Below, in pieces: positions 18,801-41,600 of a DNA stretch of 64,000 nucleotides. Position 1 is the stretch's first letter. Every line of letters begins with the position of its first letter. The translations under genes were made by a program, and so were the position numbers. This stretch comes from Tubulanus polymorphus. Taxonomy: Eukaryota > Animalia > Nemertea. Location: NCBI RefSeq assembly GCF_964204645.1, contig NC_134025.1:12958001-13022000 (forward strand), in the 5' to 3' direction. The notes under the pieces are model-generated. The model was not told the origin of the DNA, did no database searches, and saw nothing but the letters and a program-made list of their open reading frames with translations.

Positions 18801-20700
18801 TACGATTCAAATTCAATTCAATATAACTCTATATGGTTGAGAAGCGTCGTAAGTTGTACGGCGGACAAGTGGAGGTGAGAAAAAGTTTATCTCGAAAAGT
18901 TTTGTATAGTATAGCGTGCTCGAGTACTATTGTCTATTATATATGGGGTACTTCTGCAATTCAGTAGGCTCAAATGAATAGTGCAATTCAAATGGATGCC
19001 TCGATTGAACGTGCTCGAATTTATTTCAAACGAAGGTTAAGCGATCTAATATTGGACGTTGAAAATGATAGCGGAAATTAAAATCACCTGCACTCCACCT
19101 TAGAAAAATACGCATTTTAACCAAAATTATTTTAGACTGGTTGCCGGTCTATTTCCGACCGGCACGCCATCTGGTGACATAATAGGTTTATCCTTGATGG
19201 CGTGAGTTGATCCTTCACGTCATGACATTATCCTTCACGTTATGAGTTGATCCTTCACGTTACAACATTATACTTCACGTTATGGGTTTATCTTTCATGT
19301 TAGATTAAGGTTGATCCTTCACGTCATGACATTATCCTTCACATTATGAGTTTATCCTTCACGTTACTACATTATACTTCACGTTATGGCTTTATCCTTC
19401 ATGTGATGACTTCAGCGTCTGTTTGGCGGGGATGGCCGCCCATACATATCCTTCAGGGTTCTTAATTTCTTATAGAAAAACCCCTAAAAGTTGGTTTTTC
19501 ATGGCATGTTTTTTTTGTATTTGAAGCCAGATATTCTTTGTTTGTTATATATTAAACTAGGGGTCCTGGCACATCATGCCCATTTGGTTAAAGGTTTGAA
19601 ATGCTCAACAATTTATGTTTCAATATTCATTGCCACCTGGCAAACATGTTATCAAATATCAAGATTATAAGTTAAAACCTGTTGATATTTTCCTCAGAAA
19701 AACCTTTTCTATCTATGAATGAGGACTGATGACACTAAGATGGCTGCTGATTGTGTGACATTTGTCTGATCAAAAAACTTGTCTGACATGTTAAAGATCC
19801 CATCCCAAAGTATATTCATGGCAAATTTCAATGAAAAATGGCAAACCAATAGGGCCTTGGAATTCAGGCCAAAAATGAACTTTTTGGGAACAAAAATATT
19901 GAAATATTCAGATGTTGACAACGCTATATTATTCAATTACCAGTCATTTCTGCAGTGTCAACTTGTGGAATTCCCATTATGTTGTAGCAGGCTTCGATTT
20001 GCTGCGCGACAAGTGGCTTCGTCGGAGCCATGAAAACGATCTTTCCACGCGGGTACCATCGATAGAAATTATACATCATGACAGCCGCGATGAAAGTTTT
20101 CCCTAATCCCGTCGGCAACGTAACTAAAGTATTCTTATACAGAGCAGTTTCGACGATGTTGAACTGGTAATCTCGCACCGGATAATTCGTCGGGTACACC
20201 CACGTGTCGCCGGCATTTTTATCAAACCCGGGCAAGTCTTCGATCACTGTTGCCCTGGGTAAAGTATTCAGGTCATTGTTGGAATGCGCCGAATCCAATG
20301 GTCTAGCCGCAGATGTCCCCGTTTTATTTGACGGCACATCATCACTGATTTGCTGAAACAACAGGGCAGGATTTTTGGTCATAGTACTATTACTATCATT
20401 CCCATGAGTACCGCTAAACTTTGGCCTAGTTATTGATGATTTCGCAGGATTATTTTGAGCTGTGAAATGCTCTAAACCGGTATCCATAGTGTTGATTTGT
20501 TTGAGACTCTCTTCCATGGCCAAGGTGAGTAGGGCATCATCATCATCATCACACAGATCGATAAATCCTGAAGAAATTGAGGACAATGGACCTACTGCTG
20601 GCTCATTCGAGCAGACTTTCTTTTGCAACTTTTTCGTCCCCCATGTTTGAAAAAGTGTGCATTGCTTTCGTGTTTCATTCTCCCGGTTTCTGTTAGCCAT
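728..20700 (-). CDS. FANCM: Fanconi anemia group M DEAH helicase/translocase; 20 coding exons in window, 3' end lies beyond position 1
   Basis: Exons join in phase through GT-AG introns (6805 nt). Motifs: N-terminal [17 protein letters not shown] (I), DEAH (II), LSATPG (III), QRMGRTGR (VI), MHF-binding region, FLDEEAELS, and start of ERCC4-like domain (ILVDSRE...[13 protein letters not shown]). Confidence 0.97.
991..1053 (-). CDS. FANCM: FANCM coding exon 19 (start of ERCC4-like domain)
   Basis: [21 protein letters not shown]. Confidence 0.9.
1846..2864 (-). CDS. FANCM: FANCM coding exon 18
   Basis: Extends the 307-aa ORF upstream to the AG at 2865-2866; GTAAGA donor. Confidence 0.85.
3150..3322. 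mobile_element. Degenerate pogo/Tigger-like MITE
   Basis: Inverted termini AGTAGACTC ... GAGTCTACT. Confidence 0.45.
3348..3542 (-). CDS. FANCM: FANCM coding exon 17
   Basis: [10 protein letters not shown]...VYSQ...[13 protein letters not shown]-conserved blocks. Confidence 0.9.
3750..3880. repeat. Dispersed TTCCCTGA-rich MITE fragment (relative at 10152-10303)
   Basis: Repeated TTCCCTGAY motifs ending GCCACCCTG; the copy at 10152 begins CAGGGTGGCCAC. Confidence 0.5.
4681..4860 (-). CDS. FANCM: FANCM coding exon 16 (MM3-like acidic motif)
   Basis: FLDEEAELS...SSDEDE...SFIND; GTAAGC donor. Confidence 0.88.
4937..4997 (-). CDS. FANCM: FANCM coding exon 15 (predicted)
   Basis: [20 protein letters not shown]; phase 0 to 1. 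Confidence 0.65.
5225..5316 (-). CDS. FANCM: FANCM coding exon 14 (predicted)
   Basis: [15 protein letters not shown]...KKSLLE; phase-compatible, low conservation. Confidence 0.6.
5483..8056 (-). CDS. FANCM: FANCM coding exon 13 (2574-nt exon encoding the disordered central region)
   Basis: Covers the 850-aa ORF; in phase with neighbours; MM2-like LFDLGFEF. Confidence 0.92.
8225..8360 (-). CDS. FANCM: FANCM coding exon 12 (MHF-binding region)
   Basis: [35 protein letters not shown]; GTAAGT donor. Confidence 0.88.
8456..8601 (-). CDS. FANCM: FANCM coding exon 11
   Basis: [16 protein letters not shown]; phase 1 to 0. Confidence 0.85.
8686..8905 (-). CDS. FANCM: FANCM coding exon 10
   Basis: VYNQS...[18 protein letters not shown]. 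Confidence 0.88.
9270..9476 (-). CDS. FANCM: FANCM coding exon 9 (motifs V/VI)
   Basis: [23 protein letters not shown]...[12 protein letters not shown]. Confidence 0.96.
9918..10093 (-). CDS. FANCM: FANCM coding exon 8 (motif IV)
   Basis: [13 protein letters not shown]...FIGQ...GFTQKEQLR. Confidence 0.93.
10325..12150 (+). mobile_element. HINE-like element with about 140-bp internal tandem repeats, interrupted by a TIR element
   Basis: Unit AAGATGGCTGC...ATATTTGATGG recurs at about 10446, 10584, 10725 and resumes at about 12056. Confidence 0.6.
10833..12039. mobile_element. Non-autonomous DNA transposon (1.2 kb)
   Basis: TIR CAGGGCTGCCAACC...GGTTGGCAGCCCTG; target duplication CACTTA (or GCACTTAC if the ends are 1 nt shorter); subterminal RGGAAT/CGGAAT repeats. 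Confidence 0.85.
12399..12891. mobile_element. IS3EU-like MITE
   Basis: About 80-bp TIRs, TATGG...CCATA termini, 6-bp TSD TGTTTA on both sides; internal TTTTGGCG/CGCCAAAA repeats. Confidence 0.88.
12906..12997 (-). CDS. FANCM: FANCM coding exon 7
   Basis: [19 protein letters not shown]; phase 2 to 1; not in the ORF track. Confidence 0.9.
13311..13537 (-). CDS. FANCM: FANCM coding exon 6
   Basis: [27 protein letters not shown]; AAG acceptor, GTAAGT donor. Confidence 0.9.
13602..15925 (+). mobile_element. HINE/pearl-like element copy, interrupted at about 13870-15152
   Basis: Same 5' module (TAGGGGTCCAGGGACACCATGCCCACTTGG) and about 180-bp core repeats as 21701-22788. Confidence 0.8.
13888..15152. 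mobile_element. Putative non-autonomous TIR element nested in the HINE
   Basis: 11-bp TIR TGTGGTCGGGT/ACCCGACCACA; interrupts a HINE core repeat; internal 20-bp tandem repeat (TGCCGTGCCAA...) x3 at about 14031-14083; no clear TSD. Confidence 0.55.
15967..16098 (-). CDS. FANCM: FANCM coding exon 5 (insertion domain)
   Basis: [18 protein letters not shown]; 132 nt, AG/GT. Confidence 0.9.
16217..16375 (-). CDS. FANCM: FANCM coding exon 4
   Basis: [12 protein letters not shown]...[26 protein letters not shown]; 159 nt. Confidence 0.93.
16655..16958. mobile_element. Possible small MITE
   Basis: 11-bp inverted ends TTTGACGCCTT/AAGGCGTCAAA. Confidence 0.35.
16957..17575 (+). mobile_element. HINE/pearl-like element copy
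   Basis: 5' module, three core repeats and a degenerate 3' module (AAAAGTGATGCTAT...CTGGGACTCAAGTC). Confidence 0.8.
17627..17704 (-). CDS. FANCM: FANCM coding exon 3 (motif III)
   Basis: [26 protein letters not shown]; not in the ORF track. Confidence 0.93.
18104..18276 (-). CDS. FANCM: FANCM coding exon 2 (DEAH box)
   Basis: [11 protein letters not shown]...[18 protein letters not shown]; AG/GT ends, phase 1 to 0. Confidence 0.95.
18470..19444. mobile_element. IS3EU-like foldback MITE
   Basis: About 310-bp TIRs containing about 21-bp tandem ACGTGAAGGATAA units; TATGG...CCATA termini; 6-bp TSD CATATC at 18464-18469 and 19445-19450. Confidence 0.9.
19555..19905 (+). mobile_element. Internally deleted HINE/pearl-like copy
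   Basis: Degenerate 5' module joined to the ACTGATGACAC..AAGATGGC module. Confidence 0.65.
19941..20700 (-). CDS. FANCM: FANCM coding exon 1 (PIP-like motif, helicase motifs I/Ia)
   Basis: [31 protein letters not shown]; GTAATT donor at 19940; a TTTCAG acceptor 8 nt before the ATG implies an upstream non-coding exon. Confidence 0.95.
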
Positions 20701-21700
20701 CGTAACATCTGAAATTGAGAATTGAAGTAAACATCACGTTGATTATATAGGCCTTATTCATCAGGCCTTACTCAAGGTTTACTCAGTCCTGGCAGTGGTT
20801 GTCGCCACAGAGATCTGCATCGCTCTACGATCCTAGTGTATCCACCCACTGACCCAAACACAAGCATTCAAATTTGGCTGACCAGGATTTGGTCACCTTT
20901 TATTGTCTGTGTTTATACTGTGATATCTCACCTCATAAACAATTGATTTTGATAAATGACCTTAATGACATTCTGTGTTCGTTCGTTACATAATTTTGAC
21001 GATAAAACTGATTTTAACATGTTTAAATCCAGGAAGAAAGACACTCTAAATATTTGGATGGATATATGAAAGCTGTGGGTACTGGAGTGTGTAATGGGTA
21101 GTGTAGTGTGATCTGTGTGCATTTGTGGCCAGCACACAGATCACATTGTTCAATGGGGTTTGGTCCAGGACTCGCAAGATTTTCAACAACACGGAAGTAA
21201 CGTGTAATAAATGATGACTTGAATTGCATGACTACCTACCACCCCTCATTATTGTTGGAAAACTAAACGTTCGGCACTGAATAAAAATTAGTAATAACAT
21301 TTTAGAAATGGCCAGAATTTTAACTTAGGTTCTATCTCATTTTTATTTTACAATTGTGATTGGTATAATTTTTTTTTAAACGGCCGTTAAGGCTTCATGT
21401 TTCGTCTGCAATTCACTGCAAATAGTTACGCAACCACGCACATTTCAGTGTTTTTGACAGCTGTACACTCAATCAGCACCGTTCGTCACTAGCTTCACTG
21501 CGGAATTATCATTAATTAACATCGCCATATCACATCATCAACTTATATTGTGCCTTAAAACCCTAACAGCCGAAATAATTGAAATGCACACACGATTTCT
21601 ATCATTGAAAATTGAGAGAGTGGCCATGTTTGTGTTTGCTGCTTCGCGTAAATCCCGCGCGGTGCCACCGCGCGGAGTGGGGCCGATACGTCTAGGATAT

Positions 21701-24132: not shown

Positions 24133-24168
24133 GTTAGCTTTCGTCTGTTTCTACAGGCTTGATCACAC
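24133..24168 (-). ncRNA. Minimal hammerhead ribozyme variant (pLTR copy 1)
   Basis: GUGAUCA-A-GCCUGU-AGAA-ACAGAC-GAAA-GCUA; one stem II mismatch. Confidence 0.65.
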
Positions 24169-24850
24169 TGATGATGTCACTGCTGACGTCATCCGGGATT
24201 CCGGTCTTCCCTCGAGAATCAGCTGTGTGTGTGCCCCCCTCCCTAGAACGGGACAGCACGTTGTTCCAGACGGCCGGGAGATGAAAACGGCCCCCGTCTT
24301 TGTTGAGAGAAGGGTGCAATGTACGGATGTGGATTGCTTCTTTGACACCTCTCTCAAACCATCTGGGTTCAACACCGAGAATCCTAACGTTGTCAATGTC
24401 AACTGTGTGACCCAGTTGGTCGACATGAAGGTGTTTCGACACCTCTGACGTAACGGAGCTGGGGCGTCTGTGTTCCCTGAATCTGGCTCTTAAGGATCGT
24501 TCGGTTTCACCTATGTACGAGTCACTACACTGTTCGCACTTGATATGATACACCGGACTCACTACTCTCGATTTATCCAGTTTGTCCTTAGGTCTAACCA
24601 AAATCTGCCGTAGAGTGTTCATGGGTTTGAAGAACACCGGTACTCCGTATCGTTTCATAACCCGACATGTTCTGAGGTACCCTTAATATATGGTATCACG
24701 ACGGGAGCGATTTTCCGCCTTTCGGATTGTGTAGCTTCTTTAGTATTATTAGCCGGTTTGCATGGGTTCGGTGACATGATCCAGGCAGGATAGTCGTTAA
24801 AACTCAGAGCCTTCTTTACATGGTTGACCTCCTCTAACTTATCCACTGGA
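24134..24850 (-). pseudogene. Penelope linker plus GIY-YIG endonuclease, frameshifted near 24658; RT core missing
   Basis: IPYIKGTSE...FKPMNTLRQILVRPKD...VYHIKCEQCSDSYIGETERSLRARFREH...ERGVKEAIHI...LNKDGG. Confidence 0.9.
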
Positions 24851-29894: not shown

Positions 29895-30692
29895 GCCTCA
29901 AATAGGTCTTAATCGAATCAGCAGAGTTGTGCAGTCCAGATAAACCATGCACAGGCAAGTGCACAGGTGCAGGGATGAATGGCGCTATATATGAACTGCT
30001 AAGTGCAATTAAATTCAAAATATCACAGAAATACCTTGTGTTAATATTGTTTATTTATCCGCTATTAAGTTCCGTTAAACAATTGGATGTAAAGGATCAG
30101 TTGCTATCAGTGGTAATAGAGTTGCAACCGGTGATACTGATCCTTAAACATCCAACTGATCCTTAACTCTTTGCCTGCCTCGCCTATGCTGCGCTTTGCC
30201 AGGATGTCCATGTTTTTCACAGATTTATAAAACAAAAACTAGAAGAGATATTTTCATCGAATTTGTTTTATTTTATTCATCTGGTTCCTTGCTTGTTCAT
30301 GTAAAATCGGCAGCATTTCTTCCAAGAGTGATACAGTCTGTAGCAATCACCAATGCAGAGGGGGTATTTTGCAGAAAATATGCCCATTCATGCGTATTCA
30401 GCCCCATTTCAAAAGATGACGTCACTAACACATTGCATAGAATGACTGATGATAATAAGTTAAGAACTTAGCTGGTCAACCCTGTGTGAAAGTCTCTTCC
30501 ACAAGTTTAGAATTTGCAATGCAGTGGGTTTTTAAATGTTACTGTAAAGTATTGTCAAAGTTATGATGAGTATCTGTGAAGAGTGGTGGATATATAGAAA
30601 CTCCTATAAACCTTCATGGTAATACATCATATTTTCCATATATTTCCTTTAGGTTCTGGTAATTTTCATTTAAAGAAACCAAGCAGCCTTTG

Positions 30693-33494
30693 ATGTTGGA
30701 GAACATGGCTCTGAAAGAATCACTGTTTTCACTGGAAGTCGTTGTTGAACACTTAAACCTGGCAGATGTGACCTGTCGTTTTCCAGCCATAGCATTCCGT
30801 CTGCTAGACTTTCCGACATTGCTAATCGAGCACGTCCAACCAGATCTTGCAAATAAGATTCTGCAGAGTTTGCAACTGGACGTTAATCGTGAAATTCCGC
30901 GTCAGATACCAGAATTGCAAGATCGAAATGGCACATTCATACTCAAAAAAGGTAAATCTTGTCTGTTCAAGATTGTCCTCGATACCCTATGCGGCCACCT
31001 GGCGAGTACTCCTTTATACGTTCTGTTAACCGACAACTTTTCCGATCCTCCAAAGTTAGTTGGAAGCTGTTTAGTATCTCTTCATAAAACCGTCCAGCTC
31101 ATATCACAAGATGTAGCTGAAGCTGGTCTCTCCGTGCCATCAGTGCATGGTGAAAAGGGGACATATAAATTGTATAATTTGATGGGAATTGAAATCGGCG
31201 ATATTACCCTCGCTGTCCGTCTGTTAAGTCTAGGAGAAGGTCTCATTCAGCATATTCCGGACAGTCAGATCGCGAAACCAAGCAAAGGACCAGCGCGTCT
31301 TGTCGAGAATAGTAACAACGATATCAATGACAATGAGGGAGTACAGGAAATACAACAAGGTTCGTCGAAAAGTTTCGCAAAGAAAAAAACCATTTCTGAC
31401 AAACCTCAATATAGAGATGTGCTTATTCAGGATTTAGAAATTGCGGATGAAAATCAGCCTCAGCACATTGTAGTTTCTGATATTCAAAATGTTGTGTATC
31501 AGCCTACGAGACCATCGATGTCAATGGCAACGCAGACGGCCTTTGATGTCGGTGTTCAAACTCGTACGAAAACTGTCAGTGATGATAACGAAGAACTTGA
31601 TGAGCCGTTTCTATCCAATGTTTATTGTCCTCCGTCCCTTTACTTCAAAAAGGATGGGGAAGAAAAGCGTCCAGCTCCAAAATATGCAATATTCCATTAC
31701 AATGAGATCAAACCAAAAGAAACTGATCTAGAAAGCGTTCGAAGTGATGATGCACTTTTCGATTTGCTGGAAGATAATCTGTCCCAAACTCAAGTAAAAT
31801 CGAAAGTACCTCAGTTTGTTGCTTATCAACAACTTGAATCTCAACCGGTAGTTTCTGAGAGTCAGGTTGTTCCACAGCCTCCAAATTTGAGGCAAATGTT
31901 GAGTTCACCAAATTTCCAAGCGGACCAATTTCCATTCCTACGTGCTTTAATGGCAGAGCTGAGTTTCATTCAGGGTGTCCCGATGCAACAACAGCAGCCT
32001 CAACTACAGCCACAGCAAACAGAGCCTGCTAAACAGTATAGGCCTTTAGTAAATCGATCATCCCCAAAAACAGCTTGGCAGCCTAGTCGTACTAAAGAAA
32101 AAGAAAACCAAAGCGATTTTGTTGCAAGATTAGCAACACCAAAACATATTGTTGCTGAAGAGCATGCTTGTAGTAGGAAAGGCCGTCATGACTGTACCCA
32201 TGACCATAGTGCCCTGAAACAGAAAAGTTGGATTCGTAAACAGCCACAGTTTGGTCAGAAACCGAAATTACATTATGGACTGACGAATACTATGCGTCTT
32301 CGATTAGCCGCTACTAATCCTAAAATGCTCAGAACTCTGGAGGATGAAGAAATAGCGAACAGAACGTTCAAAGTGAATCAGATAGATAATCATGTTCCAG
32401 TTAGATCAACAAAAGTAGGCCTATCAGAAAATGGAGTTCAACATCGTAAACCAGTTCCAACCCCGAGACGACCGAGTTTACCGATTGAAGTAGCTGAGAT
32501 TGACGAAGCAGAAAAACAGGCAGCTTCGGAGGAAAGGAGCGTCATGGTTCATAGTCCATCAGCAAGCGATCATGATGAAACTGAAAGCGATGTCAGTATG
32601 AGTGTACAGTATGCTCATGCTCTGCTCGATGATACTGACGAAAAAATTGATGTCAAGCCACCATCGGGTCGTCTGAATACTTATCCTCCTTTCGCGAATA
32701 ATGTTCAAGCTCAGAAACCAGCCACTGCCAATAGTAATAAAGAAAACATGGCTCAATTTAGTGAATATGTCGATGATTCAAAGCTTTGGATGTCAACTGA
32801 TGAACCAGAGCTACAGGAGTTGAGAGATTCTGAGGAATCGGCATCAGATAAGTCAGCCGATGTGAAACCGGTAAAGGCGATTCAAGAACTCGTTTGTACT
32901 GACTTACGGGACTCACTGAAAAAGGTCATCAATCCTCGATCATCCGATAAATCACCAGTAACAGCCTTACGTATGTCTCAATCAGTCTTGAACAATACCG
33001 ACCATAAAGAAGAAATAGAAAGTCCTACCCCGAGACCACGGCGCCTAAGTTCTCTTGAGGACATCTTCAAACAACGTAAGCGAAGCGTGTCATTTGAGGC
33101 TTTTCCTGAATCTGAAGATACTACCTCGCCAACTGCAAAGAAAAGCTTGTCTCCGCTATCAAGTCAGGAAACATCTTCATCTCCTTTAGTATCAAAAATT
33201 CAAACGCCAGTCGTTTTACCGCAGATACCAGCACGATCGTCGTCCGTGGAGAGCACTGAAGATCTAACGTCGCATAGAACTAAGTCAAAAAATCGCAAGC
33301 CCGTTCCGAAATTACCTCTGTCCCTTCACACAGATTCAGTGAGCTCGTATATGCCATCGGATTTGGAACTCGAGAATTTAGCTAACATTTCCGTCGATGA
33401 TGAATACACGGAGGACTTTGAAGGCAGCGATGATGATATAAATATCAATCCATTTTTGAAAATCCCTCCATCGTTACTAGGCTACACTGCATAG
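30693..33494 (+). CDS. MAP10: Microtubule-associated protein 10 (KIAA1383-like), intronless CDS, 933 aa
   Basis: N-terminal LFSLEVVVE...PAIAFRLLDFPTLLI...GKSCLFK...PLYVLL...LYNLMG..IGDI.L..RLLSLG, CPPSLYF, ALMAELS, LHYGLTNTMRLRLAATNP, TDSVSSYMPSD. The first ATG is at 30693 (the ORF track start is TTG); the ATG at 30705 has better Kozak context. Confidence 0.92.
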   Translation: MLENMALKESLFSLEVVVEHLNLADVTCRFPAIAFRLLDFPTLLIEHVQPDLANKILQSLQLDVNREIPRQIPELQDRNGTFILKKGKSCLFKIVLDTLCGHLASTPLYVLLTDNFSDPPKLVGSCLVSLHKTVQLISQDVAEAGLSVPSVHGEKGTYKLYNLMGIEIGDITLAVRLLSLGEGLIQHIPDSQIAKPSKGPARLVENSNNDINDNEGVQEIQQGSSKSFAKKKTISDKPQYRDVLIQDLEIADENQPQHIVVSDIQNVVYQPTRPSMSMATQTAFDVGVQTRTKTVSDDNEELDEPFLSNVYCPPSLYFKKDGEEKRPAPKYAIFHYNEIKPKETDLESVRSDDALFDLLEDNLSQTQVKSKVPQFVAYQQLESQPVVSESQVVPQPPNLRQMLSSPNFQADQFPFLRALMAELSFIQGVPMQQQQPQLQPQQTEPAKQYRPLVNRSSPKTAWQPSRTKEKENQSDFVARLATPKHIVAEEHACSRKGRHDCTHDHSALKQKSWIRKQPQFGQKPKLHYGLTNTMRLRLAATNPKMLRTLEDEEIANRTFKVNQIDNHVPVRSTKVGLSENGVQHRKPVPTPRRPSLPIEVAEIDEAEKQAASEERSVMVHSPSASDHDETESDVSMSVQYAHALLDDTDEKIDVKPPSGRLNTYPPFANNVQAQKPATANSNKENMAQFSEYVDDSKLWMSTDEPELQELRDSEESASDKSADVKPVKAIQELVCTDLRDSLKKVINPRSSDKSPVTALRMSQSVLNNTDHKEEIESPTPRPRRLSSLEDIFKQRKRSVSFEAFPESEDTTSPTAKKSLSPLSSQETSSSPLVSKIQTPVVLPQIPARSSSVESTEDLTSHRTKSKNRKPVPKLPLSLHTDSVSSYMPSDLELENLANISVDDEYTEDFEGSDDDININPFLKIPPSLLGYTA

Positions 33495-35771
33495 TAAATG
33501 TAGTCAATCTCAAATGCCTACCTAGTTTGGATAGACTTGTGACCTGTTGGATGCCTTAAGCAATGATAGTTTCTCTATATTGTACTCTACATTATGTACT
33601 ACCGTATTTATCATTTCTGATAACAGTACCCGTATAAGAAATCCTTTTTTAAGATGAACAAAATTGGGACTACAGTGGAACCTCGGTACAACAAACTTTG
33701 GCATACTAAAGGGTTGTTTATTTCTTATGTATGCAAGGTTTGGAGTCCTGAGGTTGCATCCAGCATGCAGCAGACTATTGCATTTTGATAAAAAAAACAA
33801 CTAGTGAAAATGTATCAAACTTATTAGTCGAAAAAAGCAATAAAGAAATATTTCTGAAATTTTGACTGTAATGCTACATATGTGTGCAAAAGGAGGGGCA
33901 TGCATTTTCCCTACTAGAGCAGGGTAGGGTGTCCCCCAAGTAAATATTTCAATTAAAACCTATACAGTCAACCCCCGATATAATTTAAATTGCGTTACGG
34001 ACGATGGACCGAGTCATCATCACCAAATAAATCATTTACTTTCAATAGCAAAAGTATGTTCAGAATGCACTTCATTGTGGCCATTTTTCCAAAATTGTCT
34101 GGGAGTGCCCCCTAGACCCCCCTAAATGGCTTCATGCATACAGTGCTCCCCCTAGCCCTACAGTGCTCGTGCTGGAATGGCTTTGCCATCGAATTGCTTT
34201 CAGTTGCCCCACCTTTTCAAAGTGGTCGGGCAACATTTCTCCCTGAGGTTCCACTGATAAATGTGAATGATGAAAAATAGGACAATTTTTTTTCACCTTT
34301 TTGATAATTTTGACCCATATGTTTTGATTCTATTGGCATTGAAATATATCCAGTTTCCCACGGTTGTATTTCCAAAATGGCTGAACAACCTTATGATGCT
34401 TCACACAGCATGAATCGCAAACTGAAGCCAGAGATCTTCATGCAGTAGCTGAAAGATTTGTTACTTAGTCAGAACACCGCCAAATAGTTTTTTGACATTC
34501 ATATAATATTTTGACACATGATCGCTAAAATTTGTAGAACAGCTGCTAGATTTCAATTTTCTTGTTGTCTTGCTAGTTACTTCTACTGTTTTGCCAGTTA
34601 CTTCATAAGATTCTGAGCGATAAAAACTAGAAATATGTATGTACAAGTATATTTATCACCCTGTTCAAATGTATGATAATGAATCCATAGAATGCATCTA
34701 AGAGTACTCAATTATTTCAAAAAACTTCTGTGCTCAATCTTTACACGCAACCAAAAAGTTCCACTATGAAAATGCCTTACTTCAGGCGTTTCCACTAGCC
34801 CCTGCATCTCTAATTCAATTTTCTCTCAACGCAGTTTTTGTTGTCCCAATTTTTTTGGTACACCTGTAATAAATCTTGTCTAATCACAGTAGCATATAAT
34901 TGGACACATTGTGATAGAAATGTATTTCTGCTGGCATTTTGGTAGTTCTAAACTTAAATTCTGCTGAACACACTGGAATCACTAGGTATTTTGACCCATA
35001 TGTTGAAAATCTCATTAAGATTAGATTATCAATCATAATGATTGTGATAATTATTATACCAGTATTATGGTAACGAACTTTATCCATCATCCCAATTAAA
35101 CACAATTGTATGAGTATGATTTATTATTTGATGAGCAGGGCTTAGAATCATTTATGGTCTTTTCAAAAGTAGATTTTATACCGGTATGGAATATGTACTT
35201 TTAGCTTTAGTTGAATAGATCCTATGGCACTTAACTATTTAAAATTATTCATTTATACATACTACCATAGATTTTAATAAATTATATATATTGATAGACA
35301 TTTTAAGATTTTATGGTTGATTTAACAGGTATATTTTTTCTTGTGGAATGTCAGACAAGCATATCCTCCCATAAAGTAAGTTGACAGCATGTAACTACAG
35401 GGAACAGACCAATGAATATTTTTAAAGTTAGACTAAGTAGTCTGGCAGACGCATCAGTCTGTCGGGACATTAAAATTCAGAATTAACATTCAAACACCTG
35501 TGCTGTTCAGCTCTGTCTATTGGAGGACTTACATAGTGCATTAAAGGTAGATATGGTTTGTCAAATCTAAACTGAAATTTTGAAAGATTAAAATTACAAA
35601 CATACCTCTTGATTTCTCACGTGAAAAGGTATTGTAGTACCACAGTACTGGTATCTTTTACACGCTGATGCTATTGGGATACAGGTGTGTTTAATGAATT
35701 GAAATCTGTAAAATTGTCTGCATTTATATGATATCTATATACGGTACAGGACCACATTAAAATCCACAAGG

Positions 35772-35942
35772 ATGACTATGCTGCAAGTGGATCAATGCTA
35801 TTACGAGACATTTCTTTTGGAATTAACTGTCGAAAGGAACCGTTCTGTGGAGCTATTCCCTTGTTTTTTCGAAGCCTATCATGCTCTGCAGACCGAGGCT
35901 GCAAAACATCGAAATGCAGTGAAAATTGAATACATATTCAAG
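35772..35942 (+). CDS. CatC-like gene exon 1
   Basis: MTMLQVDQ...AVKIEYIFK|GTGATT. Confidence 0.72.
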
Positions 35943-38648
35943 GTGATTTCACGATTCCATATTTTCATTGTTTACACGTACTCCACAAGCAGTCTATGAA
36001 TTGAACTTCAGTGAATATTTGCTTTCTAATGTACATTTCAGGTGACAGCTGAAGAAAAAGTTCTTGTCGGTAAGTTGCATTTTTGTACAAACTAATAGGT
36101 TCATCGAAAGGAGAAAAGTAATGGAAAAGATGATGATTTCTAAATCCTTTCATTCCCATTCCATTTGATAAAGAATTTTTTCTGATTGCAGTAATTGTGC
36201 GTGATTATGAAGATAGTTCAACCATAAAGTGACTTAAACTATGAAGTGATATTGGTTATCAGATTGTTTTCTATTGTTTAATGCTGACTAGCGTCGAGAT
36301 CATAAGATCATGTGAAATTTGTCCACAATGCAACCCGGGTCACATTTACCTCTTGTCTGTGACCGTGGGCTAACCTTCATTATATGATAACACGCTTCTC
36401 TCCTAAATTGCGCTGTAGCCATTTCATTCAAATCAATCGACCGTGTGAGAAACTTATAGAAATGATAACAAAGCTTGTCCCCGGGGAGAGGCAGGCTTCT
36501 TTACGCGATAAGTTTTATCATTTTAGTCGAGCTTTTTGTGGTATAAAAGGCTGCGAATACAAATGGGTATTGGAGGGTAGCCTAATCTCAGTGTAATTCA
36601 GTCAATTGATAAGTCTAAGTTTCCGTGCAAGCTGGCGGCGGGGCTATCGATAACTGTTTGAGAAGATTGCCGAACCAAGCTACTACTAGATAAATGATAT
36701 TACAATGAATAACTGGCATTTTGCTTAGTGTCACAAGATCGAGATAGATTGACTGGCAAAGAATAGAATTCTCCAGGTAATTGAACAAACACCGCAGCAG
36801 ACGTTTTTGTCATATTGATATCATTTGACTGTCATTTATTTGCCATTTAGCAATTTTTCTGATGGAGAATCCATGCTTTGCGCAGGTTTTGTGTCGATCT
36901 TTTCTCGTGACTGCCTTATGAGAATAGCAATATTCTAGCAAAAAGAGTTATTATCTGGGTATCACCAAGTCACCATTTTTAGCACAAAGGAATGAGTTGA
37001 AGTATTTTTCGTATTTTCATATCACTACTCAGTTCACCCTTGGAGTAATTCAAACTAAAATATGCCATCCCTCACTCAAGTCTACTAGAGTCGACAATTC
37101 TAAAAAATAGCCCTACTTTTCATCTGAATACTGGTTCATTCAATGCTAGGTCTACAAACAAACCTTTTCTTGGTGGATGCGGCAATGTGCTGTGGCTAAT
37201 AACAGAATTGCTCAGCACACGTTGGGGTCCAATTTTAAAAGTAGATCAAGAACATAGCATAGGCATCATATAAGTTTTGTTTAAATTCTGATCACTAAGA
37301 ATAATCACTCTTAGATTTTAGTAAGAATTTTGTATATGTTTTCTTTTCTAGTCGTAAAAGTCTTGGAAGTCAATATTGTTGAGGCATTGATTGACGCAAT
37401 AGGTCAAGCACTCCGTGGTGGCATCACATTTTCTGTGAAATGTGTGCCTCTTCGAGGATATGATGGGTTTGCCCATGATGTCCTTGGTCTCGAGCAAACT
37501 GTTGTAGAAAATGGACAACAACAATTATCTGGTGATCATCTTTACTGGTGGGAATTCAGTATAGAATTTAAAGGTATTTCTCTAACAGTGTCTATCATAT
37601 GTCATAAGAAATCTTCCAGTCACTGATGATTACTGTATGTCAGTGTCCCAGCATACAGTTTCATGCGAAAGGTCAGAAAAGCTTTGTGAGGAGAAATTCT
37701 GAGATGTCTGACATAATAAAGTACTTACCATTGAATAACTACATGTAGTTATATATACAACAAACATAGTTATATGAAATTTATACAACTAGCTGTGTAA
37801 CAGTGTTCAAAATGATAACTTCATGTTAACTGCGCTAGCTCTGGTTAGTGCTACCATCTACTTGTAGCTCTGGTTAGTGCTACCATCTACTTGTATGTGC
37901 TTGAACTATTATTCAATGTGTAACTCACTTTTATAGATATGTCGTTTGAAAATTTTGTGGCGAATTGGAAAGAAGAAGCTGCAGCTGAGCTGGGTCTAAC
38001 ATCCAGCATGGAACTGAATATGGATGTTTATAAAGTTGTAGCCGAACGAAAGGTACAAACAAGCCTTTCTAGTACTTCAAAATCAAATACCCTTAAGATA
38101 AAAATAAATTGATCGATTTGTCAAATATATTCAGTTACATTTTGACCTAATCACTATGAGCCAGTTTTTTAAATGACCCGTTGGGTTGAAATGTTACCGA
38201 ATGGACAGTAGAACTCACAATTCGGATGACTAGGGACTGCCCAGATTTCTTTAAATTAAAATCTGAATTATGAATAATAGTTTACATGGTTCCAGGTTAA
38301 ATCGACCAAATATTTCATCCGAATCAAATGAAAATCTGGATTGGAAAATCCAAATAGAGTTCTACTGTATAACATCTATGTACCATTTAAAAAAAAACAT
38401 TTTTAAACGTTGCTGTTGAAATAAACTTTATTGAAACTTAGGTGCACTGTTTCATCAATACACCAAATCAAGAGGAACTCGACTTGATGACATTTCAACT
38501 TCCGATCATGAAATCAATGGGCAACCAAGTGCAGATACATTGCAAGTCGATCCAACATTTTAGCGACTTTCTGAATGAAAATTACTACGAAAAAACTTTG
38601 TTGAAAAGATTTTTGCATTGGTGTCATCATTTCAAAGGATCTTGGTGA
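35772..38648 (+). CDS. Five-exon gene, 247 aa, tandem muconolactone delta-isomerase (CatC)-like dimeric alpha+beta barrel protein
   Basis: Exons 35772-35942, 36042-36069, 37352-37573, 37937-38052 and 38442-38648, all GT-AG and in phase (744 nt); internal repeat YIFKVTAEEKVLVVV / DVYKVVAERKVHCFI. Family call is by recalled pattern. The start could lie further upstream (acceptor at 35749). Confidence 0.8.
36042..36069 (+). CDS. CatC-like gene exon 2 (28-nt microexon)
   Basis: Branch point CTAAT, TTTCAG acceptor, GTAAGT donor; VTAEEKVLV. Confidence 0.75.
37352..37573 (+). CDS. CatC-like gene exon 3
   Basis: VKVLEV...VKCVPLRGYDGFAHDVLG...HLYWWEFSIEFK; strong pyrimidine tract. Confidence 0.82.
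37836..37895. repeat. Perfect 29-bp tandem duplication
   Basis: TAGCTCTGGTTAGTGCTACCATCTACTTG x2. Confidence 0.95.
37937..38052 (+). CDS. CatC-like gene exon 4
   Basis: DMSFENFVANWKEEAAAELG...DVYKVVAERK; not in the ORF track. Confidence 0.82.
38206..38369. mobile_element. pogo/Tigger-like MITE
   Basis: CAGTAGAACTC ... GAGTTCTACTG|TA. Confidence 0.6.
38442..38648 (+). CDS. CatC-like gene exon 5
   Basis: VHCFINTPNQEELDLMTFQLPIMKSMGNQVQIHCKSIQHFSDF...W*. Confidence 0.82.
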   Translation: MHCFINTPNQEELDLMTFQLPIMKSMGNQVQIHCKSIQHFSDFLNENYYEKTLLKRFLHWCHHFKGSW

Positions 38649-41600
38649 TCTGGCACTTTTATTTAACAATGAATTGATTGTTAGACATAAGCTGTATCGT
38701 TTAAGTAATTAGTGGTAATTATAGCCATGACTACACAATATTTGATAATCTTATAATCCCATATAGCAATGATAAATCTATTTAAACAAACAGAAATATA
38801 ATAACAGGGTCATTGTCATTTTATATGCTTCGTTCGCACTGCTGAAAATAAACTGGATCCTTCGTATTTTTACTCTTGTTGCCTTTTGCTGATTGATCTT
38901 TGTTGTTTTGGAATATCAGAGATCAGCATAAGTCTAACTTGATACAGTTTCAACTAGATCAGATTGATGTACATATATTGGGGCAAATACGTATAATGTC
39001 TACCATATTTCATTTTTAATGCTCAGCCGTATGTGGCCATAACTATCAATTTTCGTACCGGTAATGAGTAATTATACAAAATTGTGGGATTTCTCGTGAT
39101 TCAACCTGATTTCAAGACACTTTTTGCCAAGACTTCAATACAGTGTAAAATCGATTAAAAATCAACATTGTCTATTCAGCTGCCTATCCATTTTAGCAGT
39201 TAAAAACCTATTTCAGGTACTCCCAAAATTGACAAAAGGGTCATGGCAATTTGAAATCAAATCAGTATTACTGTAACGATAGGCCCAGTTTAGTATCCTA
39301 ATAGACACATAGCAGGGCATAGGTCAGGGTAGTATAGATGAGTATCATAAATCATACTCCTATTCTAGATCATGTAATTTATCTATGTATTATTGAGAAA
39401 TTTTGCCCAAGATATGGCTAAAGCTGGGGGCACACTTCTGTCAAAGCTGCCACAACAAGTCTGCTAGTGTCAAAGTCGCCTCGTGTGGGTGAAATCTTCA
39501 GGCGTACTTGACGCTTGCAGCTATGACACCAATATCTAACATGTTTGATATTTTTGTCGCAATGTGACAAGTGCGCCAAGTGTGCGCCTAATCCAGCGTC
39601 GTTGCTGCTGGTTTTAGTCGGATTGAAACGATGGATTAATTATGTGACCTACAATAATGGCAGGTGCAGTACACGAAGCCGCCTAGTTGTTGCTAGTGTG
39701 GGGGAAACAGTTTTCGACATCATTGTGGCTGATTATTGCCATGGCGGACATGTTGTGGTGGCTGTGACGCTGGTGTGCAGCCTAATGACAAAATGTAGGA
39801 AATCAGGTGTTACCCTAGAAAATTTTCACAGGGATCATTCATTTATAACGGGCATATAAAGAGGATTGGAGAGTCAGTTCAAATGTGTACTGATGTGTAA
39901 AGGGGAGAGGGTTTAAGAGGTGATTGTACGTACATGTACATACACTAAAATGTAACACCTACCAATCTCCTATTTGTTGTCCTCTAACGTCCTCTAACGA
40001 GTGATGGTGTTCATCATTGCATGATAGCTCTTCATAAAAAATGATATTTGGTTAGTGATTAGAACTGGGTTTAAGATGAAACAATACTGAACAACGACCA
40101 TAGATTTGTGACTTAAATATATTTTCGGAATTGAATCCCTGAGATTCAGTAGAGAGACAGTATGTATGCAAGGCGAGGGAGTACTGAAACAAGAAAGCTA
40201 GTGCACCAGCGGGAGGGGTTTGGTAAAAAGATAGAGATTTTATGGGTACCTAATGAAAAATTTAATGTTGTAAAGGTGGCAGTGACAACAACTGACTGAC
40301 AGTTTATTGATAAATTTTCCTTCGTTATTAATTTGCAAAATTCATACTGTTAGAGTGATAATCTATTTTTTACGGATTACATCATGACACGTGTGTCAGG
40401 AAATCCAAGATGACATTTGACAAGGGACAATGATCGTCACAGTCATCAATTTGCTCTCCATTAATAAACGATGAAATCATAGTCTATTGTCACTGTGCGC
40501 AAACCGTAACAGTTTCTTAAAAGATCAAATCCTAATAAATAAATGCTGTGCTTGATTAATTCACTGTTAAAAAATCTCTTTTGATTGATCATTGAAAGTT
40601 GTTGTAAAAATTAATCAAGCATAGACTTGAGTTATACGTTGAAAGATTGTCTTGGCGTATGGTCATAGTGACTTATGCTGGCATGGCTACTTGGACCTAG
40701 TAGTCCAGTTTCTATTCTCTGCAAAATGTCATGTTTTGTAAACTTTTTGGAGGTATTTTAGATTTATTGATAAGTAAGGCTTCGGATGTTTCATTAATCT
40801 GAGAATATGCTTCAAACTTAAGCCATTAATCCCGTGCCACACACAGATGATTAGCACAGTCTCAGCTGTATTAATCCTGTCCGCCGTCTGCAGAAGCATT
40901 TGTTTTGAAGGTCAGCCGCCGTCTTGGCTGTTCGATGGCAGCCAACGGGTCGTCTTAATTACAGAAAACATGAAAAGAATCTTACAAGGCTCTCGTAGTG
41001 GTTTCTAAACCTCAAAATTAATGAAGTTACCTTATTTGCATATAAAACTCATTGTTTCTAGCGCTAACAAGGTCGTTAAGAACGAAATCAGCTTTAGCTT
41101 AGTGTACTGGCATTTGTATCTTGTATACCGACAATTTGTCATATGTCATATTAACACAGATTAGAGGCGAACTGATTACCAAGCGCAGTAGATTTCTTGC
41201 TTCATCCCGACTGACTATGCTGTTGAAAACTTGAAAACATGCCATGTCGGTTTGAGGTTGTTGCAATGGCAATAGGGTGATTCTCCAGGGGGGCACCCTA
41301 ATGTCATTAGTCTTCTCATAAGAAATTATACAGTGCGATTTGTCTCCATCATGTTCGGTTCCTTTTCATCCTTTGTCATTAGAACGCGAGTTTTCCTGTC
41401 GTTTGTCAATAATCAATGAAGACTTGTCACAGGGACCATTCGGAAACCCTGTCGATTGTAGATGACCAACTCCTCGTGTCAAATTTAATACCCTGGAGTT
41501 TGCGGTTTGATAAATTATCAAACCTTCCTTTCAGAGATCTCATTGTGAGTTTCCTACTCTATGATCAGTGTGATGAACCTAACCCATGCCTCAGCTGAAT

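Follow-up and report, generated by a model that had tools for sequence, protein, structure and literature searches.

How does an animal genome come to hold a gene whose product resembles two copies of muconolactone isomerase (MLI, or CatC), a bacterial enzyme, joined end to end, and what would such a protein do there? The question is raised by a stretch of 64,000 nucleotides from the nemertean Tubulanus polymorphus (contig NC_134025.1, positions 12,958,001 to 13,022,000 of the forward strand; hereafter the window). At positions 35772 to 38648 an earlier note, made from the letters alone, had read a hidden five-exon gene for a tandem MLI-like protein that might have been acquired horizontally and might use aromatic or halogenated metabolites. 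The gene does exist, and its structure is an ordinary one. The reading that we favour, with a probability of roughly 0.6, is that it belongs to an old animal family of two-domain MLI-like enzymes with one active site, acting on something different from muconolactone, and that the snail egg protein ovorubin (PV1) is a secreted, dead offshoot of this family. The family probably explains where ovorubin came from; the worm gene itself is probably not a muconolactone isomerase, and it is not recently transferred.

The gene and its tandem protein

The coding region is made up of the following exons.

35772..35942, + strand: exon 1, 171 nt (amino acids 1-57); the first strand, first helix and second strand of repeat 1.
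36042..36069, + strand: exon 2, a microexon of 28 nt (amino acids 58-67); codes for a hairpin and the third strand of repeat 1, E61 being conserved.
37352..37573, + strand: exon 3, 222 nt (amino acids 67-141); the last part of repeat 1 (conserved motif P-L-x-x-Y103-[DE]-x-F-A), the linker, and the first strand of repeat 2.
37937..38052, + strand: exon 4, 116 nt (amino acids 141-179); helix with W151-x-x-E154, followed by K173 and R178.
38442..38648, + strand: exon 5, 207 nt (amino acids 180-247 and stop); D193, L199-P200, G206, last strand and C-terminal helix.

Joined together, these exons give 744 nt, encoding 247 amino acids plus a stop without any internal stop codon, and all four introns run from GT to AG, with phases 0, 1, 1 and 0. 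The four junctions were found at exactly the predicted coordinates in contigs of run X2, one of five runs consulted, which stems from a single study with no library type on record; at the first two junctions the short side measures only 29 letters. The spliced X2 contig extends beyond the stop to 38844. A 7,458-base contig of run X1 crosses introns 1-3 unspliced and serves as a DNA-type control, and runs X3, X4 and X5, in which no junctions occur, are not counted as evidence against splicing. The proposed in-phase gene with its microexon is thereby confirmed, but hidden it is not: a search with exon 3 returned an identical 247-amino-acid protein already in the database as 'uncharacterized protein LOC141904807 [Tubulanus polymorphus]'. 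No paralogue of this protein was found within the 64-kb window. A hydropathy scan of exon 1 revealed no stretch resembling a signal peptide, and the C-terminal helix in exon 5 is about 25 amino acids longer than in most relatives.

The internal duplication had been called clear, which does not hold for a pairwise comparison: the best local score between the two halves, 33, was equalled by 228-238 of 3000 shuffles. Profiles and a structure model make it solid nonetheless. The profile of the N halves finds the C half of the query with P 3.9e-17, the profile of the C halves finds the N half with P 3.4e-5 (0 of 500 shuffles scored as high), and hhalign gave 99.6% for N against C halves. A model built from 47 aligned sequences, with a predicted local distance difference test (pLDDT) of 91.4 and a predicted template modelling score (pTM) of 0.86, shows the order beta-alpha-beta-beta-alpha-beta twice. 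A fold computed from the single sequence was set aside as poor (pLDDT 46.9, with generic ferredoxin-like matches only). The fold, and with it the close match to ovorubin discussed below, is thus a prediction. The best single-domain structural match to repeat 2 is the dehalogenase ClcF (Z 10.5-11.0), which together with the model agrees with a ferredoxin-like barrel domain of the dimeric alpha+beta barrel clan. The two repeats would form one barrel, like the MLI dimer. According to PMC4835899, MLI itself is a homodecamer, a ring-shaped oligomer.

Animal relatives, shared introns and bacterial kin

Word-based homologue searches with the single protein returned only the protein itself, and a weak NCBIfam match to threonine synthase, far below cut-off, was dismissed. 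With phmmer, in contrast to the word-based searches, 80 matches including the query were obtained at E<=1e-3 among 1.84 billion cluster representatives. These are mostly tandem proteins of 200-225 amino acids, 21-37% identical to the query; P0050 and P0078, repeat proteins with cadherin or Ig domains, were omitted as chance matches. The alignments used here hold 47 (A1) and 58 (A2) of the 80, most fragments and fusions having been omitted. For the spread over organisms we rely on 14 named relatives among 30 of the 79 that were looked up, 11 of which are animal and 3 bacterial. The animals are Sanderia, Stylophora, Trichoplax, Lingula, Mytilus, Bradybaena (two proteins), Arion, Candidula and Branchiostoma (two), that is, a jellyfish, a coral, a placozoan, a brachiopod, a mussel, land snails and a slug, and amphioxus. 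A profile search added nine matches, seven of them named and all from corals or scallops. Vertebrates, arthropods, sponges and eukaryotes other than animals were not among the named relatives, in a sample too thin to establish absence. Neighbouring locus tags point to tandem gene expansion in snails and scallops.

The Pfam MIase family (PF02426) recognizes 27 of the 79 relatives above its cut-off and 12 more below it, DUF3303 matches two weakly, and one UniRef record carries the automatic name 'Muconolactone isomerase domain-containing'. Relatives in phages were not found with the 247-amino-acid protein, nor relatives in viral contigs with the query and the bacterial-subfamily alignment. These animal proteins appear to be without prior study, as our literature search retrieved no paper on an animal homologue; the searches combining muconolactone and animal terms were weak, with other terms dominating.

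Some members depart from the common architecture. In P0043 of Branchiostoma belcheri (780 amino acids), a fusion form, barrel units alternate with Kazal domains, and P0104 of Porites is a nearly doubled tandem. The two Bradybaena paralogues have locus tags 7 apart. In five paralogues of the land-snail clade (P0036, P0042, P0062, P0063 and P0073) Ser or Thr replaces the catalytic-type Glu discussed below, which, from their alignment, may possibly reflect parallel recruitment as pseudoenzymes. A weak MIase-family match with one in-frame TGA lies at G338:C2:127617-127784.

The age of the gene can be read from its introns. Ten intron-bearing loci were found with P0008, which groups with Porites proteins in the tree (100/100); these loci, L123-L132, are coral-type by sequence only. 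Introns 2, 3 and 4 of the worm gene match them in position and phase. For intron 4 (phase 0, after E-R-K) the acceptor is shared by all ten loci and the donor by 5; for intron 3 (phase 1) the acceptor is present in 5 of the 10, with the full junction in L132; and for intron 2 (phase 1) the acceptor is seen in one locus, L132, at the same codon. The remaining loci have no match to the exons concerned, nor was the microexon recognized in the 874 upstream bases of L132. Beside these loci, a coral-type gene without introns lies on one contig (L122:203-874) and is probably transcript-derived. The common positions and phases imply that the gene has been inherited vertically since the ancestor of cnidarians and bilaterians or longer. 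Recent horizontal transfer from bacteria into the nemertean lineage, although close bacterial relatives do exist (one cyanobacterial protein is 35% identical to the query over repeat 2), is therefore effectively refuted, and we give it next to no weight. Animal relatives moreover outscore the bacterial ones in phmmer, and the base composition of the gene (GC 0.40, and 0.375 at third codon positions) resembles that of two neighbouring open reading frames (third-position GC 0.35 and 0.32). The lineage-specific transfer considered in the earlier note thus finds no support in a family that spans Placozoa to Chordata.

The nearest bacterial kin form a single-domain MLI-like subfamily of about 104 amino acids, for which 57 loci were found, mostly cyanobacterial and otherwise scattered in Pseudomonadota and Actinomycetota; their automatic names are 'muconolactone Delta-isomerase family protein' or 'transporter'. 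Repeat 2 of the query aligns with this subfamily in hhalign at E 8e-16, and the subfamily aligns with CatC (1MLI) at E 1.7e-7, which establishes homology to CatC transitively and extends it to the members of PF02426, even though the query itself has no Pfam match. The proposed tandem MLI-like fold and true kinship with CatC and ClcF are thereby upheld. Query and subfamily share the motifs W-x-x-E-A, W/Y-K, R, D, L-P-I-M-x-x-x-G and Y-E-x-F-A; the bacterial proteins differ in being single domains, presumably homo-oligomeric with both pockets intact, whereas the query is fused. CatC and ClcF (3ZNJ, 3ZO7 and 4FPI) likewise have one copy of the homologous domain where the query has two. A bacterial origin of the family in the distant past is plausible, given the 43-51% identity between three C halves of cnidarian type and a cyanobacterial member. 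In a domain tree of 74 rows and 105 columns, for which 22 of the 47 tandem proteins were split in halves, the animal halves and the bacterial subfamily group together (99/94), apart from a CatC/ClcF group (99/95). The 22 animal C halves all come out as a single clade (99/91); the N halves do not. Because the bacterial rows fall among the animal rows, the tree does not resolve the direction of any transfer.

The putative active site and the likeness to ovorubin

Descent from a common ancestor with CatC need not mean the same chemistry, and the pocket residues bear on this. In ClcF we take E27 to be the catalytic Glu, going by the title of entry 3ZO7, and W44, R45, Y50, N52, Y76 and H87 are presumably pocket residues, H87 with a role across the subunit boundary. 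In the alignment E27 corresponds to E154 in repeat 2, and repeat 1 is without an equivalent Glu. The CatC-like pattern seen earlier in repeat 2 is in this respect genuine, in that the Glu and the L-P motif survive, as does a G/A turn behind strand 2. It fails at the other six positions, which read Y172, K173, R178, V180, S204 and F219 in repeat 2, whereas 30 CatC-type sequences keep the W44/R45/Y50/N52/Y76/H87 pattern, as judged by reading the alignment.

Of the 47 animal proteins compared, 35 carry the Glu equivalent to E27 in the C half and 8 in the N half, and 15 of 16 bacterial rows have it as well. A Tyr at the position of H87 is distributed in the opposite sense: 39 of the 47 have it in the N half and 7 in the C half, and it occurs in all 16 bacterial rows. 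What the bacterial single domain keeps invariant is thus split between the two animal repeats. The Tyr of repeat 2 is kept in 6 of the 8 proteins with a Glu in repeat 1, as compared to 1 of the 39 without it, a covariation that is confounded by kinship. The pattern suggests a pair of pockets formed across the repeats; most animals, T. polymorphus among them, would keep one, composed of E154 and Y103 with W151, K173, R178 and D193. This composite pocket is drawn from alignments. The active site is likely a single one, with its Glu from repeat 2. According to PMC4835899, fused members of this superfamily are known that have lost one site.

A true muconolactone isomerase, or a halomuconolactone dehalogenase, with aromatic or halogenated metabolites as its substrates along the lines of the earlier note, would fit the homology to MLI and ClcF, the Glu in repeat 2 and the Z of 10.5-11.0 for ClcF on that repeat, but we consider it very unlikely. 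Apart from the replaced pocket positions, the equivalog model for CatC (TIGR03221) has no match to the query; it gives 26-51 bits for 10 of 12 family members and 26-43 bits for five bacterial kin, with a cut-off of 130.6, and ClcF itself scores 127.5. The bacterial kin also lack a beta-ketoadipate context: muconate cycloisomerase (catB) was above cut-off in none of five genomes with the subfamily, three of these five are without an intradiol dioxygenase domain (two have one), and no core cat or pca enzyme was present among 20 scanned neighbour proteins from the 57 loci, the neighbourhoods of which are variable. CatC or ClcF activity of the worm protein can, on the residues that it carries, hardly be expected. 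The differences at the other pocket positions would rather suggest that the Glu abstracts a proton from some other small, anionic substrate.

One of the scanned neighbours, of the CMD family, lies at a distance of about 3.5 kb in 4 of the 57 bacterial loci. In four proteobacterial loci (L047, L048, L050 and L057) the homologue directly follows a glyoxalase/VOC-family gene, with a GMC oxidoreductase downstream in two of them; as far as gene order goes, this neighbourhood may serve as a lead to the substrate class.

A structure search with the spliced protein, as had been proposed, did recover the MLI-like fold, with a top match that the earlier note had missed. Among 48,161 Protein Data Bank (PDB) representatives the model is most similar to ovorubin of Pomacea canaliculata (9UAJ, released 2025-12-31), with Z 18.9 and a root mean square deviation (rmsd) of 2.5 Å over 181 residues, model positions 10-219 lying on chain positions 21-204. 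The next match has Z 11.7 and ClcF Z 10.5; a repeat of the comparison gave 18.8 versus 12.1. Ovorubin thus stands about 7 Z units above the other tandem barrels, for which the rmsd is 3.5-4.7, and this indicates a fold shared with PV1 beyond the superfamily level, as far as a predicted model can be compared with a solved structure. In Foldseek four ovorubin chains are among the first seven rows, with an E-value tied with that of chlorite dismutase; their template modelling (TM) scores are 0.57-0.61 by query and 0.75-0.80 by target, chlorite dismutase having 0.51-0.55.

Sequence profiles give weak but recurrent support in the same direction. Each of six animal-based profiles, run against 177,635 PDB sequences, had at least one ovorubin chain among its 5-12 matches at E<=1 or <=10, with E-values of 0.042-0.95 on three different subunits, the best (0.042) extending over 146 profile positions. 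A bacterial-only profile found no ovorubin chain in the PDB, and the single 247-amino-acid query found no ovorubin sequence. The alignment is of motif level across the linker and repeat 2. In one long profile alignment the ovorubin chain keeps the equivalent of K173 and is without equivalents of E154 and Y103, as expected of a pseudoenzyme. As described in PMC5696525, PV1 subunits are secreted, glycosylated proteins of 196-210 amino acids that form hetero-oligomeric carotenoproteins. In its predicted fold the worm protein shares the tandem barrel of PV1 along almost the entire chain, but it differs in having no leader, in keeping Glu and Tyr, and in having no paralogue in the window; in a crude test its best 11-residue hydropathy within the first 30 amino acids was 0.67, versus 2.85-3.26 in two leader-like relatives. 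We think it probable that PV1 descends from this animal family.

The events that we envisage are as follows. Two MLI-like domains would have been fused into one barrel resembling the MLI dimer, and of its two pockets one would have been kept, made of both repeats (W151, E154, K173, R178, D193 and P200 of repeat 2, with P99, L100, Y103 and F106 of repeat 1). The protein would be a cytosolic acid-base enzyme in which E154, as the general base, deprotonates the alpha-carbon of a small, anionic carbonyl metabolite, with K173 and R178 holding the substrate and isomerisation or elimination as the outcome. In snails, duplicated copies would have lost the Glu equivalent to E154, and one lineage may have gained a signal peptide and so become PV1, the carotenoid-carrying egg protein. 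That the worm protein is still an enzyme seems rather probable to us from its conserved residues. The account in full, with a one-site enzyme of MLI fold, common to animals and cyanobacteria, that came from bacteria near the animal stem, before the cnidarian-bilaterian split, with PV1 as its pseudoenzyme descendant, and with the 'orphan' and 'viral' accounts of PV1 being wrong, we put at about even odds.

Several findings weigh against the favoured reading. The Pfam scan of single exons and of the whole protein gave no match at E<=10. Besides the kinship and alignment basis mentioned with the composite pocket, the Glu equivalent to E27 is absent from 12 of the 47 C halves, and the cross-subunit role of H87 is a presumed one. 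With regard to ovorubin, the profile matches are individually non-significant, Lrp/AsnC regulators score similarly or better in five of the six profiles, and identity in the structural match amounts to 13-18%. The gastropod-only profile gave ovorubin its worst score (E 0.95), which does not place PV1 inside a named gastropod subclade. Finally, tandem DUF3303 proteins of giant viruses reach TM 0.69-0.75 with Atlas models of this family.

Two other explanations have to be set against these events. The protein could be a non-catalytic ligand-binding or storage protein, for a carotenoid, a lipid or another hydrophobic ligand, with the conserved Glu, Lys, Arg and Tyr serving binding or assembly. 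The sole characterised close structural relative is indeed a carotenoprotein, the Glu is lost in several paralogues, the snail and scallop genes have been expanded in tandem, and two relatives (P0061 and P0065) have a strongly hydrophobic N-terminus. We nevertheless regard a storage role as rather unlikely, since the bacterial subfamily hardly varies at the positions of Glu, Lys, Arg, Asp and Tyr, which are also kept across animals, the cnidarian-type C halves are so similar to the cyanobacterial member, and the query has no hydrophobic leader. Heme as the ligand is argued against by the lack of a conserved His column: in the alignment of family halves neither animal half has a column with a His majority (>=60%). 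The tandem barrels of Cld, HemQ, DyP and ABM proteins belong to the same superfamily and have the same layout (Z 9-12 versus the query model), but the conserved His of the heme barrels is without a counterpart in the family, and no heme barrel was among the matches in the profile searches of the PDB.

It could also be that the likeness to ovorubin reflects the common tandem barrel only and that PV1 has a separate origin, for example from a giant-virus gene. PMC5696525 and PMC10168382 describe PV1 subunits as without similarity outside ampullariids, and PMC13336756 (2026) proposes a viral derivation from GC content, Protrek and Foldseek matches, and a tree of those matches. Tandem barrels have arisen repeatedly in this superfamily, as PMC4835899 reports; in Atlas models tandem barrels, including those of giant-virus DUF3303, come to TM 0.6-0.75 with this family; and the sequence E-values for ovorubin fall short of significance. 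However, the distance in Z and rmsd between ovorubin and all other tandem barrels is large, and the viral matches appear generic for the fold. The part of Table S20 of PMC13336756 compared here lists 12 distinct viral targets from Foldseek; 8 of them recur among the 25 best viral matches of the nemertean model, and the first and second viral matches are identical for PV1 and the nemertean model, so that these matches do not single out PV1; the remainder of that table and the supplementary figures may hold others. The best of these matches is, against the nemertean model, an ABM protein with 9% identity, TM 0.47 and rmsd 6.6. Moreover, the search in other molluscs, as given in PMC13336756, used BLASTp with at least 30% identity, which would miss this family. 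A separate origin of PV1 is therefore improbable in our opinion. Viral relatives of one bacterial DUF3303 protein were not found, and a literature search on DUF3303 yielded no paper. Neither did we find a paper on the 9UAJ structure, although subscription journals were thinly covered and the depositors may have noted the MLI-like fold.

If the descent of PV1 from this family is correct, an innovation connected with eggs laid on land would have an ordinary animal ancestor, and would illustrate a route from enzyme to storage protein. The origin of PV1 then becomes directly testable through an intron-bearing, pan-animal family with the same predicted structure. The conservation pattern would further point to a reaction conserved in both cyanobacteria and marine invertebrates, and the small bacterial homologue offers an easy model for it.

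Transcript context and other features of the window

Two further features lie close to the gene or within it.

30663..33491, + strand: upstream neighbour, a MAP10-like open reading frame (stop-to-stop frame, MAP10_N and HPHLAWLY), given as context only.
38219..38350, no strand: high-copy repeat in intron 4, outside the protein; summed X2 contig depth above 3000, many loose ends.

Contigs of run X2 are nearly continuous from the MAP10-like frame through the intergenic region into exon 1 (31034-35940), and again past the stop (38871-40500). A separate 5' end or an upstream exon was not seen in these contigs, which show neither strand nor start. Read-through, or a transcript shared with the MAP10-like gene, is possible. 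Another X2 contig of 1,165 bases (36217-37380) retains most of intron 2 attached to exon 3, and represents unspliced RNA, intron retention or an internal start.

High-copy short repeats occur at 38219-38350 and at about 30000-30450, and are probably fragments of mobile elements. A frame of 182 amino acids at 24137-24682 on the minus strand has a weak GIY-YIG match (E 0.009, below cut-off) and is, we presume, the end of a Penelope-type retroelement. An exon at 19936-20733, also on the minus strand, encodes the start of a DEAD/DEAH helicase domain.

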